Assembly: GCF_000027125.1 (NCBI RefSeq)
Contig: NC_017626.1
Origin: Escherichia coli 042
GTDB lineage: Bacteria > Pseudomonadota > Gammaproteobacteria > Enterobacterales > Enterobacteriaceae
DNA: 64,000 nt
Strand: one strand, 5' to 3'
The notes under the pieces are model-generated. The model was given only the letters and a program-made list of their open reading frames with translations. It made no database searches and was not told the origin of the DNA. The translations under genes were made by a program, and so were the position numbers. This document shows, piece by piece, positions 10,918-50,615 of this stretch. How positions within the stretch are numbered: position 1 is the first letter of the stretch; each line of letters begins with the position of its first letter.

Positions 10918-11020
10918 ATGCCGGATGCGGCGTGAACGCCTTATCCTGCCTACAAAGTCGTGCAAATTCAACATATTGCAGTTTATTGGTAGGCCTGATA
11001 AGCGCAGCGCATCAGGCAAT
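10918..11020. repeat. REP/BIME cluster: two inverted REP units
   Basis: Sequences gccggatgcggcgtgaacgccttatcctgcctaca and taggcctgataagcgcagcgcatcaggc match the E. coli REP consensus. Confidence 0.65.
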
Positions 11021-12129: not shown

Positions 12130-12761
12130 TCAGCTTTCTTTTCCGTTGTCTTGCGGACCTCACGGTACCAGCGCGGGTGATGTTTCTTCGCCCAGGCGCT
12201 GGTAACCCATCCTTCCACCATGGCGGTAATCGTGCCTTTTACCCAAAGGGCGGCGTAGATATGCACCATGATAACCACAATTAGCGCCACTGCGGCAAAT
12301 GAATGCAGCATTAACGCGAATCGGATCACCGGGATTGAGAAAGCAGGCGCAAAATAAGGACGCCAGATAATCACGCCGCTCACCAGCAGCAGAACCAGGA
12401 AAATAATCGCCGCCCAGAAAACGCATTTCTGACCGAAGTTATAACGCCCGGTGTCACCTACTTCCTCGTTGACGACGATCTTACGAATATTCTTCGCCCA
12501 AAAGATATCATCCCGATTGATTAGGTTGTGATGCCAGTAACGGAAAAACATGATGATGAACGAGGCAAACATAACCACGCCGACAAACGGGTGCAGAATT
12601 CGCGCCAGCTGCGGTGTGCCCATGATTTGCATCAACCAGTTGAAGGACGGAAACAAAAAGCCAAGCCCGCTCACCGCCGCCAGGATGAAGCAGAAGGCGG
12701 TGATCCAGTGGTTGATACGTTCCGGCGCGGTGTAGCGCACTATGGTGTCACGTCGTTTCAT
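12126..12761 (-). CDS. fdoI: Formate dehydrogenase-O cytochrome b556 subunit
   Basis: 211-aa membrane protein; 4-nt overlap with fdhE. Confidence 0.95.
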
Positions 12762-13672: not shown

Positions 13673-16600
13673 TTACACCTTTTCCACATTCACAAGGAAG
13701 GACTTAAACTCCGGCGTCTGCGTGTTCGCATCACCAACGAAAGGCGTTAACGTATTGGCAATAAAGCCTTTTTTAGCTACGCCTTCATAGCCCCAGTGAA
13801 TCGGAATACCGATGGTATCGATATCTTTGCCGTTCGCTTTCAGCGTGCGAATACGTTTGGTCACCACCGCTTTGGCTTTGATATAGCCACGGTTGGAGGA
13901 GACTTTCACGGTATCGCCCTGGGCAATGCCAAGTTTATTCGCCAGCGACTCCCCGATTTCCACAAACTGCTCTGGTTGCAAAATCGCGTTCAACAGCGCG
14001 TGTTTGGTCCAGTAGTGGAAGTGCTCGGTCAGACGATAGGTGGTTCCGACATACGGGAACTTATCGGCTTTACCCAACGCTTCGGCGTCGTCTTTAAAGA
14101 TACGCGCAGCCGGGTTCGAGATAACGTTTGGATGCAGCGGGTTAGTTCCCAGCGGCGTTTCAAACGGCTCGTAGTGTTCCGGGAACGGACCTTCCGCCAT
14201 CTTATCAAGGGCAAACAGACGTCCCATGCCTTCCTGCTGCATGATAAACGGCCCTACGCCGCTGCCCGGAGGCGCTGCGCTGTAGTCCGGAATATCCCAG
14301 CCGGTCCACTTAGTGCCGTCCCATTTCAGCAACTGACGCTTCGGATCCCACGGGTTACCCTGCGGATCTGCGGAGGCGCGGTTATACAGGATGCGGCGAT
14401 TAAGCGGCCATGCCCATGCCCAGCCCAGCGTGTTACCGAGGCCAGACGGATCGGCGTTATCACGGCGTGCCATCTGGTTACCTTCTGGCGTCCAGCTACC
14501 GGCGAAAATCCAGCAGCCACAGGAGGTGGTACCGTCATCGCGCAGTTGGGCGAACGAGCTAAGTTGTTGGCCTTTCTTGACGATAACCGCACCGGTTGCC
14601 GGATCGGTAATATCGGCCAGCGCCTTACCGTTGCTCTCCATCGCTACTTCTTCCGACTTCGGCTCATGCGGGATAGCGTAGTTCCAGGTCATGTTCAGCA
14701 CCTGGTCCGGGTTCGCGCCACCCTGTTCGGCATACATCTTGCGCAAGCGCAGGAAGATACCGGAGAGGATCTCGCCATCAGTCAGCGCAATCCCCGGGGC
14801 GTCCGCACCTTTCCAGTGCCACTGCAACCAGCGACCGGAGTTAACGATTGAACCGTTCTCTTCCGCGAAGCAGGTCGATGGCAGACGGAACACTTCGGTC
14901 TGGATCTTCGACGAGTCAACTTCGTTCAGCTCACCGTGGTTCTGCCAGAAGTTAGAGGTTTCAGTGTTCAGCGGGTCGATGGTGACGAGGAACTTCAGTT
15001 TCGACAGACAACCGATCACTTTGTTTTTGTTCGGGAATGAGGCAACAGGGTTAAAGCCCTGGCAGATATAGCCATTGACCTTGCCTTCTTTCATCATCTC
15101 GAAGTATTGCAGGACGTCGTAGCCTTTATCCCACTTCGGCAACCAGTCAAAGCCCCAGCTATTTTCCGCCGTCGCTTTATCACCAAAGAAGGCCTTCATC
15201 ATAGAGACGAAGAATTTCGGGTAGTTGCCCCAGTAGTTTACCTGGCCTTCCAGCAGCGGTTTTGGCGTGTTGGCGGTAAGGTAGGTTTGCAGATCGGTCT
15301 GCTTCTCGCTCGGCAGCGTCATGTAACCCGGCAGGCTCTGCGACAGCAGCCCCAGGTCCGTCAGCCCCTGAATATTGGAGTGACCGCGCAGGGCGTTAAC
15401 GCCGCCGCCTGCCATCCCCATATTGCCGAGCAGCAGCTGGATCATCGCCATCGTACGAATGTTTTGCGCACCAACAGAGTGTTGCGTCCAGCCGAGGGCA
15501 TACAGGAACGAGGCAGTTTTATCGTGAGCACTGGTTTCGGCGATGTATTCGCAGACTTTCAGGAACGCGTCTTTTGGCGTACCACAGATGTTTTCAACCA
15601 CATCTGGCGTGTAGCGGGAAACGTGCTGTTTCAGCAAGTTCCACACGCAGCGCGGATGTTGCAGCGTGGTATCGCGTTTGGCGAAGCCGTTTTCGTCCAG
15701 TTCGTAAGTCCAGGAGGATTTATCGTACTTGCGTTTTTCCGCGTCATAGCCGGTGAACAGGCCATCTTCAAAGCCGTAATCCTCACGCACGATCAGGCTG
15801 GCGTTGGTATAGGCTTCGGTGTATTCGCGGTTGAATTTTTCATTGTTCAGCAGGTACAGCAATACGCCTGACAGGAAAGCAATGTCAGTACCGGAACGAA
15901 TAGGGGCATAGTAGTCAGCCACCGCCGCCGTACGCGTAAAGCGAGGATCGATCACAATCAGCTTCGCGCCATTGTGAATTTTGGCTTCCATCGCCCAGCG
16001 GAATCCGACCGGGTGAGCTTCAGCGGCGTTACCGCCCATCACCACGACGAGGTTGGCGTTCTTGATGTCGACCCAGTGGTTGGTCATCGCACCGCGACCA
16101 AATGTTGGAGCAAGACTTGCTACCGTTGGTCCGTGTCAGACACGCGCCTGGTTGTCGACCGCGAGCATACCCAGCGCGCGGGAGAATTTTTGCGTTAAAT
16201 AGCCGGTTTCGTTACTCGACGCGGAAGCACACAGCATCCCGGTGGAGAGCCAGCGGTTAACGGTCACGCCTTCGGCGTTTTGCGCAATGTAGTTAGCATC
16301 GCGGTCTTCTTTCATCAGTTTGGCGATGCGATCAAACGCCTCTTCCCAACTGATTTGCTGCCATTTATCAGAACCTGGCGCACGGTATTCCGGAAACTTC
16401 AGACGGCTTTCGGAGTGGATGAAATCCACCAGGCCAGCGCCTTTCGGACAAAGTGCACCGCGGTTGACCGGGTGATCCGGATCGCCTTCGATATGGAAGA
16501 TAGATGCTTTGGCGTTTTTTGCTCCGTCACCGAGGCTGTACATCAACAGCCCACAGCCTACGGAACAATAGGTGCAGGTATTACGGGTTTCGCGGGTGCG

Positions 16601-21547: not shown

Positions 21548-24560
<3,013 letters not shown>

Positions 24561-25397
24561 ATGACCGTATTACATAGTGTGGATTTTTTTCCGTCTGGTA
24601 ACGCGTCCGTGGCGATAGAACCCCGGCTCCCGCAGGCGGATTTTCCTGAACATCATCATGATTTTCATGAAATTGTGATTGTCGAACATGGCACGGGTAT
24701 TCATGTGTTTAATGGACAGCCCTATACCATCACCGGTGGGACGGTCTGTTTCGTACGCGATCATGATCGGCATCTGTATGAACATACCGATAATCTGTGT
24801 CTGACCAATGTGCTGTATCGCTCGCCGGATCGATTTCAGTTTCTCGCCGGGCTGAATCAGTTGCTGCCACAAGAGCAGGACGGACAGTATCCTTCCCACT
24901 GGCGCGTTAACCACAGCGTGTTGCAGCAGGTGCGACAGCTGGTTGCACAGATGGAACAGCAGGAAGGGGAAAATGATTTACCCTCGACCGCCAGTCGCGA
25001 GATCTTGTTTATGCAATTACTGCTCTTGCTGCGTAAAAGCAGTTTGCAGGAGAACCTGGAAAACAGCGCATCACGTCTCAACTTGCTTCTGGCCTGGCTG
25101 GAGGACCATTTTGCCGATGAGGTAAATTGGGATGCCGTGGCGGATCAATTTTCTCTTTCGCTGCGTACGCTACATCGGCAGCTTAAGCAGAAAACGGGAC
25201 TGACGCCTCAGCGTTACCTGAACCGCCTGCGACTGATGAAAGCCCGACATCTGCTACGCCACAGCGAGGCCAGCGTTACTGACATCGCCTATCGCTGCGG
25301 ATTCAGCGACAGTAACCACTTTTCGACGCTTTTTCGCCGAGAGTTTAACTGGTCACCGCGTGATATTCGTCAGGGACGGGATGGTTTTCTGCAATAA
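24561..25397 (+). CDS. rhaS: AraC-family activator of rhaBAD
   Basis: 278-aa product with C-terminal AraC HTH. Confidence 0.95.
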
Positions 25398-25470
25398 CGC
25401 GAATCTTCTCAACGTATTTGTACGCCATATTGCGAATAATCAACTTCGTTCTCTGGCCGAGGTAGCCACG

Positions 25471-26319
25471 GTGGCGCATCAGTTAAAACTTCTCAAAGAT
25501 GATTTTTTTGCCAGCGACCAGCAGGCAGTCGCTGTGGCTGACCGTTATCCGCAAGATGTCTTTGCTGAACATACACATGATTTTTGTGAGCTGGTAATTG
25601 TCTGGCGCGGTAATGGTCTGCATGTACTTAACGATCGCCCTTATCGCATTACCCGTGGCGATCTCTTTTACATTCATGCTGACGATAAACACTCCTACGC
25701 TTCCGTTAACGATCTGGTTTTGCAGAATATTATTTATTGCCCGGAGCGGCTGAAGCTGAATCTTGACTGGCAGGGGGCGATTCCGGGATTTAGTGCCAGC
25801 GCAGGGCAACCACACTGGCGCTTAGGTAGCGTGGGGATGGCGCAGGCGCGGCAGGTTATCGGTCAACTTGAGCATGAAAGTAGTCAGCATGTGCCGTTTG
25901 CTAACGAAATGGCAGAGTTGCTGTTCGGGCAGTTGGTGATGTTGCTGAATCGCCATCGTTACACCAGCGATTCGTTGCCGCCAACATCCAGCGAAACGTT
26001 GCTGGATAAGCTGATTACCCGGCTGGCGGCCAGCCTGAAAAGTCCCTTTGCGCTGGATAACTTTTGTGATGAGGCATCGTGCAGTGAGCGCGTTTTGCGT
26101 CAGCAATTTCGCCAGCAGACTGGCATGACCATCAATCAATATCTGCGGCAGGTCAGAGTGTGTCATGCGCAATATCTTCTCCAGCATAGCCGCCTGTTAA
26201 TCAGTGATATTTCAACCGAATGTGGCTTTGAAGATAGTAACTATTTTTCGGTGGTGTTTACCCGGGAAACCGGGATGACGCCCAGCCAGTGGCGTCATCT
26301 CAATTCGCAGAAAGATTAA
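25471..26319 (+). CDS. rhaR: AraC-family activator of rhaSR
   Basis: GTG at 25471 gives a 282-aa product [13 protein letters not shown]...; the track ORF extends upstream to 25360, so the start is uncertain. Confidence 0.8.
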
Positions 26320-27350
26320 TTCGCCATGCCCATGCCGACGATGTTGGCGGCAACAATAATCACCACACAACCGAGGCTCAACACCGTTACCGGACGGCGA
26401 CCTGCATTGTTCCACTCTTTCAGCACCAGCCCGACGATACCGCCGCACAATACATAGAAGCTCATATGCAGCATCCAGCTGATGTAGTCATACTGCGCCG
26501 GAATACGCGCGTGGCCCCAAGCATAGAAAAAGAATTGCAGATACCACATCAACCCGCCCAGTGCTGAGAGTAACACATTGTGAATGATCAGCGGTTTTGC
26601 CAGCGAGAAGTCGGCTTTTAGCGACAAATCCTTCACTTTTGCCAGACGAATGAAGCAGAAACCGAGGTTGATGATCGCGCCGCCGCCCATGATGACAACA
26701 TAGCTTGGCAGAGCGACATACAGTGGATCGACGCCCAGTGCGGCAGCGGCTTCATGCATCGGTTTTGCGGCGTTCATCGCAAAGGACATCCCGGCAGAGA
26801 AAATGCCGCACATCACCGCCAGCACCAGCCCTTTTTTCAGGTTGAACTCTTCGGCTTTAATGCCCATCTTGCGCTCTTTCAACTGCCCGGCGCGAGTTAC
26901 AATCCCTACGCCAATCAGCGCCACCAGAACGCCGAGCAACGTCATGCGTCCGCCTTCGGTATTAATCAGAACATCGAAATTGCCGTTGATAATTGGCGTC
27001 ATCAGCGTACCGACAATCAACGTAATGCCAATGGCGATGCCAATTCCCATCGACATGCCGAGATAACGCATGGTCAGGCCGTAGTTGATATTACCGATCC
27101 CCCACATTGCGCCGAACAGAAAAACAGGCAGCAGCGTAGAGAGACTAAACGAGCTGTAATACGCCCAGAAATTCGGCAGTAACAGGGCGCTGATGGCCCA
27201 CGGCAGAATAATCCACGAAACAATCCCACCAACTGACCACATGGTTTCCCATGACCATTTTTTTACTTTTTTGAACGGAGCGTAAAAACAGGCTGCACTG
27301 GCCGCGCCGATCAAATGCCAAAATATCCCCATCGTAATCGCGTTACTCAT
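26316..27350 (-). CDS. rhaT: L-rhamnose-proton symporter
   Basis: 344-aa polytopic membrane protein. Confidence 0.95.
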
Positions 27351-36825: not shown

Positions 36826-36932
36826 AAAAGGCCTGATGCGCTTCGCTTATCAGGCCTACATGAATTCTGTAATCTATTGAATTTGCAAACTTTTATAGGT
36901 CGGATAAGGCGTTTGTGCCGCATCCGGCATGG
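36826..36932. repeat. REP/BIME cluster between pfkA and sbp
   Basis: ggcctgatgcgcttcgcttatcaggcctaca and taggtcggataaggcgtttgtgccgcatccggca REP units. Confidence 0.6.
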
Positions 36933-50016: not shown

Positions 50017-50547
50017 TTACGCTTTGTAGCTTAATTCTTCGATGGTGTGGAAATGGTTGGTATAGATGCAAATGTCGCCTGCAATATCCAACGCCTTTTC
50101 AGCAATTTCACGGGCGCTAAGTTCAGTGTTTTCTAACAGCGCGCGCGCCGCAGCCTGGGCGTAAGGGCCGCCGGAGCCGATAGCAATAAGATCGTTTTCT
50201 GGCTGCACCACGTCACCGTTACCGGTGATGATAAGCGATGCAGTTTCATCCGCGACTGCCAGCAGTGCTTCAAGTTTGCGCAGCATGCGATCGGTACGCC
50301 AGTCTTTTGCCAGCTCAACGGCGGCTTTGACCAGATGGCCCTGATGCATTTCCAGTTTGCGTTCAAACAGTTCGAACAGCGTAAAAGCATCCGCAGTACC
50401 GCCCGCAAAGCCCGCGATGACTTTGTCGTTGTACAGACGGCGGACCTTTTTCACGTTGCCTTTCATTACGGTATTGCCCAACGTGGCCTGACCATCACCA
50501 GCGATGACCACATGGCCGTTACGGCGTACGCTTACTATAGTTGTCAC
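50017..50547 (-). CDS. hslV: ATP-dependent protease peptidase subunit HslV
   Basis: 176-aa product [20 protein letters not shown]... Confidence 0.97.
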
Positions 50548-50615
50548 GAGCTGACCCCTTGGTTACGAATACAGAGTACAAACCCCGTACAAAAGTACGG
50601 GGCATAATGCAATTA

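Follow-up and report, generated by a model that had tools for sequence, protein, structure and literature searches.

The junction between rhaS and rhaR in Escherichia coli 042 raises the question of where translation of rhaR begins and whether it is tied to translation of rhaS. The window analyzed here, a stretch of 64,000 nucleotides, contains the rhamnose locus of E. coli, including rhaB (22804–24273, minus strand), rhaS, rhaR, rhaT (26316–27350, minus strand), and sodA. The gene context is rhaBAD-rhaSR-rhaT, with rhaR flanked by rhaB, rhaS, rhaT, and sodA. On the plus strand, rhaS spans 24561–25397 and encodes 278 residues, ending with a TAA stop codon at 25395–25397, in agreement with the list of open reading frames and with the RefSeq annotation of K-12 and of strain VCSW5. 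The coding sequence assigned to rhaR, 25471–26319 on the plus strand, begins with GTG 73 nt downstream of rhaS and encodes 282 residues; RefSeq and PGAP annotation, NCBIfam models, PDB entries, and an orthologous start codon in 76 of 79 species all point to this assignment. The junction region is 99.8–100% identical to many complete E. coli genomes, and the RhaR of the window is 98–100% identical to E. coli RhaR. It is very probable that rhaR is translated from GTG 25471, with its own GAGGT Shine–Dalgarno (SD) sequence, on a bicistronic rhaSR mRNA, and that the open frame upstream does not belong to the gene.

The uncertainty about the start arises from the reading frame itself. As the first-pass annotation had pointed out, the rhaR frame runs on without a stop ahead of GTG 25471 and overlaps the 3′ end of rhaS. 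Its coordinates and codons were confirmed on the sequence, as were the in-frame starts GTG 25360, ATG 25381, and GTG 25471. The frame is indeed open from 25360, though GTG 25471 lies 37 codons farther on rather than the 38 that had been counted. The listed open reading frame, 25360–26319, would yield 319 residues from GTG 25360, 312 from ATG 25381, and 282 from GTG 25471; its overlap with rhaS is 38 nt. Upstream of 25360 the frame continues to 25240, where it is bounded by an in-frame TGA at 25237, and this additional stretch contains no ATG, GTG, or TTG. An ambiguous start thus does exist in the E. coli sequence, which offers two further in-frame starts and an AGGGA at the ATG, but comparative evidence favors GTG 25471.

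The length of the open extension is not beyond chance. When the 111 bases from 25360 to 25470 were shuffled with dinucleotide composition preserved, 23% of the shuffled sequences also lacked an in-frame stop, and the proportion rose to 37.5% for the 72 spacer bases alone. Stop triplets do occur in the spacer, a TAA at 25437 and a TAG at 25463, each in one of the two other frames.

A broader view comes from rhaS–rhaR junctions collected from 80 species-level Enterobacteriaceae genomes, 79 of which were usable. At the position orthologous to the codon at 25471, 66 of these 79 species have GTG and 10 have ATG, while the remaining three have GTG one codon later; with the window included, the orthologous codon is GTG in 67 loci and ATG in 10. 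In the window the SD sequence GAGGT occupies 25459–25463 on the plus strand, 7 nt before the start, and its duplex with the anti-SD sequence has an energy of −7.2 kcal/mol. A GAGG or GGAG precedes the start in 75 of the 79 other species. With the window counted, 65 of 80 sequences have GAGG at the same place and 11 have GGAG, and the distance from the start is 6–8 nt in 76 of the 80.

The first-pass annotation had proposed conservation of the upstream extension across species as a check, and the outcome is clearly negative. Of the 79 loci, 41 have an in-frame stop some four codons before the start, in most cases the TGA of TGAGGT, and 72 have one no more than 16 codons upstream, frequently the TAA of a conserved AATAAT block. 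The frame is open for at least 37 codons in only four loci (one Escherichia, two Klebsiella, and one Raoultella). Spacer lengths of 71–83 nt differ by numbers that are not multiples of three. Conservation by codon position within the putative extension is flat (0.69/0.62/0.61), with no codon periodicity. The orthologs therefore lack the protein-level conservation expected of an N-terminally extended isoform.

Comparison of closely related sequences suggests how the frame came to be open in E. coli. The layout common among Enterobacteriaceae has the rhaR frame shut just upstream of the start, by the TGA in TGAGGT or by the TAA in AATAAT. The loci with 9–10 open codons, from Enterobacter and Kosakonia, stop at the AATAAT block, and this was verified by hand in one Enterobacter locus (L079). 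In E. coli the corresponding TAA (25437–25439 of the window, plus strand) falls outside the rhaR frame, but many other species have it in frame. Likewise, the TAG that adjoins the SD sequence (25463–25465, plus strand) is out of frame in E. coli, at a position where most species have the in-frame TGA of TGAGGT. The interval between the SD sequence and the start (25464–25470, plus strand) contains one more base in E. coli and a second Escherichia species (L003, 98% RhaR identity) than in the other species, and column 83 of the spacer alignment is filled only in these two sequences. GAGG ends 8 nt before the start in these two sequences, 7 nt before it in 56, and 6 nt before it in seven. In a further Escherichia lineage (L004, 93% RhaR identity), the spacing is the ancestral 7 nt and a TGA stands in frame. 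None of the 5,426 RefSeq complete E. coli genomes carries a closed-frame variant of this type.

A single extra base between the SD sequence and GTG would thus account for the apparent rhaR extension in E. coli, since it would have shifted both stop triplets out of the rhaR frame in that lineage. Separately, the C-terminal RhaS codons GAT-GGT (Asp-Gly) by coincidence spell an ATG in the rhaR frame. This ATG, at 25381–25383 on the plus strand, is the start of the historical or gene-caller form of 312 residues. The GAT-GGT codons that spell it are specific to Escherichia RhaS, and the ATG is confined to three Escherichia sequences: the window, L003, and L004, in the last of which it does not fall in the rhaR frame. 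To judge from these alignments, the upstream open frame appears to be a recent by-product of a one-base indel and not a real protein extension.

Curated resources agree on the downstream start. RefSeq K-12 (NP_418342.2) and PGAP give a gene of 849 nt and 282 residues, with a 73-nt gap after rhaS in every genome inspected. In searches with the NCBIfam RhaR equivalogs NF010025 and NF010027, which have 282 positions, positions 2–281/282 align with residues 39–318/319 of the 319-residue frame; because the alignment starts at residue 39, position 1 of the models corresponds to the GTG 25471 codon. The whole-protein scores are 572.5 bits (curated cut-off, 525) and 565 (cut-off, 384), both above threshold. 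Pfam detects AraC_binding (cupin), HTH_18, and HTH_AraC, that is, a ligand-binding domain and two AraC helix-turn-helix motifs. Residues 1–37 of the 319-residue frame have no match in the NCBIfam and Pfam searches. The crystallized N-terminal domains of RhaR (PDB 5u93 and 5u9e) start at MAHQL. In the paralog RhaS, residue 8 aligns with residue 11 of the 282-residue RhaR, and the extension has no RhaS counterpart. The stretch that is open in the rhaR frame and contains GTG 25360 and ATG 25381 (25240–25470, plus strand) is accordingly read as untranslated in that frame: it is non-conserved, belongs to no family model, and is missing from the paralog. In family match, domains, and gene context, the gene of the window is the same as RhaR, the L-rhamnose-responsive activator of rhaSR from the AraC/XylS family, and nothing sets it apart. 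The GTG 25471 start is already settled in curated resources.

Longer forms nevertheless circulate. Non-Escherichia orthologs from several pipelines are about 282 residues long, while the ENA E. coli cluster representative has 312 residues, and starts of the ATG 25381 type occur in public sets (entries P0001 and P0004). The second of these entries, an E. coli protein of 397 residues annotated from such a start, is a RhaR variant with a C-terminal frameshift that reads antisense to rhaT. Part of the older RhaR literature appears to number residues with an offset of 30. The situation resembles that of over-extended start calls in general, in that the upstream ATG gives a 312-residue call while curated RefSeq uses the downstream GTG; it differs in that the rhaR extension also overlaps the preceding gene and can be put down to one additional base in the interval from the SD sequence to the start. 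A literature search that included the TetRP and Cappable-seq supplements gave no accessible RhaR N-terminus and no initiation site or transcription start in the spacer, and the supplements contained neither rhaR nor a nearby coordinate. We know of no functional test of the rhaR GTG. The gene has been grouped with lacI, cra, and mlc among sugar regulators with fixed non-ATG starts, of which only lacI was tested (PMC11445065). As in those regulators, the GTG start of rhaR is kept, both in E. coli and in most of the other species compared.

Two other starts must be weighed against GTG 25471. The more serious proposal is dual initiation, in which ribosomes that finish rhaS would reinitiate at ATG 25381 and produce a lineage-specific, rhaS-coupled proteoform of 312 residues besides the product of GTG 25471. 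The position of this ATG, 14 nt before the rhaS stop codon and 17 nt inside rhaS, is compatible with reinitiation, and it has an SD-like AGGGA (AGGGACGGG) whose anti-SD duplex energy of −7.8 kcal/mol is comparable to the −7.2 kcal/mol of GTG 25471. Duplex energies and local accessibility are similar at the two starts, so that a thermodynamic choice between them is not decisive. The SD-like stretch, however, is poorly spaced, as it extends right up to the start codon, and lies partly paired within a predicted hairpin. A terminator-like hairpin with a T-rich tail was also noted in the 3′ end of rhaS (25366–25380), directly before ATG 25381; such sites do not occur above the level of shuffled sequences.

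Further points can be cited on behalf of the 312-residue form. All eight E. coli-type junctions that were inspected leave the frame open, and all but a handful of 5,417 matching records are at least 95% identical across the junction; 312-residue calls are found in public sets, as noted above; and the 1990 purification paper of Tobin and Schleif may have described two RhaR polypeptides from two in-frame starts. Against these stand the lack of the extension in 75 of the 79 other species and in the Escherichia lineage L004, the lack of a family match or a RhaS counterpart, and the crystallization of the N-terminal domain without it. Substitutions within the overlap also follow rhaS synonymy rather than the extension frame, the two SNPs that distinguish the window from K-12 (25370 and 25385) being synonymous in rhaS and Val-to-Ala changes in the extension frame. 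The spacer is almost invariant within E. coli, and its two SNPs, both silent in the extension frame, are too few to weigh as a selection test. On balance we regard dual initiation as improbable. A start at GTG 25360, giving a protein of 319 residues, is far less credible and can for practical purposes be set aside: this codon is the first ATG, GTG, or TTG after the in-frame stop at 25237, but its anti-SD duplex reaches just −2.4 kcal/mol, it is not conserved across species, and no annotation or family model uses it. We infer that initiation in E. coli occurs exclusively, or nearly so, at GTG 25471, from which the 282-residue activator would be made as the second, separately initiated cistron of the rhaSR mRNA.

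The choice of start was thought to bear on whether rhaS and rhaR are translationally coupled. Coupling through an overlap of the two genes is unlikely. The conserved start lies 73 nt after the rhaS stop codon in E. coli and 71–156 nt after it in all 79 species, and coupling of the kind that depends on overlapping stop and start codons is therefore inapplicable. The junction would resemble the ATGA and TAATG junctions of overlap-type coupling only if ATG 25381, upstream of the rhaS stop, were used; the rhaR overlap is specific to E. coli, and the conserved start lacks the overlapping or abutting geometry that defines such junctions. Coupling by unmasking of the SD sequence was also considered, with a ribosome modeled on the rhaS stop codon. 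The SD sequence had a mean probability of being unpaired of 0.30 versus 0.34, and for E. coli the values were 0.46 versus 0.43, so there was no consistent effect.

The spacer between the two genes (25398–25470, plus strand) is non-coding, and its conservation is a feature in its own right. An alignment of 64 species shows blocks that are invariant or nearly so, in the order TAACG(C/A)GA, TCA(C/A)CG(T/A)TTT, RATAAT, and GTT, followed by the SD sequence; in the window the first three are TAACGCGA (25395–25402), TCAACGTATTT (25409–25419), and AATAAT (25435–25440). Pairwise identity is at least 0.9 in 16 of 61 spacer columns, a level reached in rhaR by 8 of 90 third codon positions (p = 0.006), and the length of the spacer is kept at 71–75 nt in most genera. 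The E. coli copy is a derived variant. In Citrobacter, Salmonella, and Klebsiella indica (L005–L018, L075, and L076), REP-like palindromic insertions (GCCGGATG...CATCCGGC) are found about 20–90 nt upstream of rhaR, between the RATAAT block and the SD sequence, and lengthen the spacer to 89–156 nt.

It is possible, though we hold the view only tentatively, that the spacer is a conserved cis-regulatory element (an mRNA structure, an anti-SD segment, or a site for a protein or small RNA) that sets translation of rhaR relative to rhaS. Such a function would be compatible with initiation at GTG 25471, and any coupling between the genes would then act through the spacer and not through the overlap. 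The near-invariant blocks, the excess of conserved columns over third codon positions, and the constant length all favor it. Three helices drawn by hand pair in 73–78% of cells, versus 28–59% for slid controls, with few two-sided changes, of which UCACC:GGUGA to UCAAC:GUUGA in Klebsiella is an example; the pair counts are inflated, however, as the helices were derived from the same sequences, and only one of the three is present in the E. coli spacer. Most folding z-scores are unexceptional (mean −0.9, E. coli +0.27), and a ribosome placed on the rhaS stop codon leaves the SD sequence unfreed. RNAalifold predicts no consensus structure for the spacer (0 pairs), and a search of Rfam gave no match to a known RNA.

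Other identities for the spacer were tried and rejected. The RATAAT block resembles the −10 element of an internal sigma-70 promoter, but the best −35 candidates match at only 1–3 of 6 positions, and a promoter scan of the E. coli sequence is empty there. A CRP-like dyad, CGCGA-N6-TCACC, was picked out by eye; its key position 18 varies while positions that are not part of the CRP site are invariant, and the 19-nt motif has a second exact match at 12313, inside a coding region. Nor is the spacer significantly similar to the three rha promoters, of which it might have been a relic: the best local alignments to PrhaBAD, PrhaSR, and PrhaT have z = 1.4, 0.4, and 0.9, respectively. The RhaR half-site motif (TTCTTGAAAAAnnGAC) is absent from the spacer.

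The higher level of RhaS than of RhaR has been ascribed to their differing SD sequences, in a review citing the Egan laboratory (PMC5566544). That account fits the duplex energies calculated here, −10.3 kcal/mol for the AGGAGG that precedes the rhaS ATG versus −7.2 kcal/mol for the GAGGU that precedes the rhaR GUG. A wider proposal, and a somewhat more doubtful one than a regulatory function of the spacer as such, is that the conserved non-coding spacer, with its TAACGMGA, TCAMCGWTTT, and RATAAT blocks and an A/U hairpin by the SD sequence, may tune the ratio of RhaR to RhaS across the Enterobacteriaceae, that the one-base insertion in E. coli made the spacer readable as an N-terminal extension, and that a minor rhaS-coupled proteoform of 312 residues may arise as a result.

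The biology of the system is little altered by these results, as the curated 282-residue RhaR and its GTG start both stand. It follows that rhaS and rhaR are to be treated as separately initiated cistrons. For annotation, the lesson is that gene callers favoring the upstream ATG will yield a 312-residue RhaR in E. coli. In rhamnose-inducible vectors with rhaSR, the 73-nt spacer is best left unaltered, as changes to it could affect the ratio of RhaS to RhaR.

Several other features of the region were recorded. A 44-residue antisense open reading frame (25345–25479, minus strand) spans the whole spacer; it is not conserved, because its ATG lies opposite the codon for His3 of RhaR, which is specific to E. 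coli. Upstream of rhaS, a conserved palindrome, TGAGAAnnTTTCTCA, is found in the 5′ untranslated region of most non-Escherichia species (L020–L082), about 15–40 nt before the ATG and between a TACTAT −10 element and the rhaS SD sequence; E. coli, Citrobacter, and Salmonella lack it. The rhaS gene of Enterobacter sp. ENT03 (L069) appears to be disrupted, its longest open reading frame having 239 codons and missing an N-terminal motif of 10 residues. In E. coli NCTC9064 (L086, 788–1538), an IS1A element precedes rhaR by 53 nt; the locus lacks rhaS, rhaBAD, and all else as far as fdhD, which leaves rhaR without its promoter. Elsewhere in the window, matches above the Rfam gathering threshold occur at 16083–16141 and 50545–50602 (both minus strand), 55214–55266 and 10954–10996 (both plus strand), and 36852–36893 (minus strand), and comprise SECIS_3, the ClpQY promoter element, the L31 leader, and two ES036/CssrF small RNAs.
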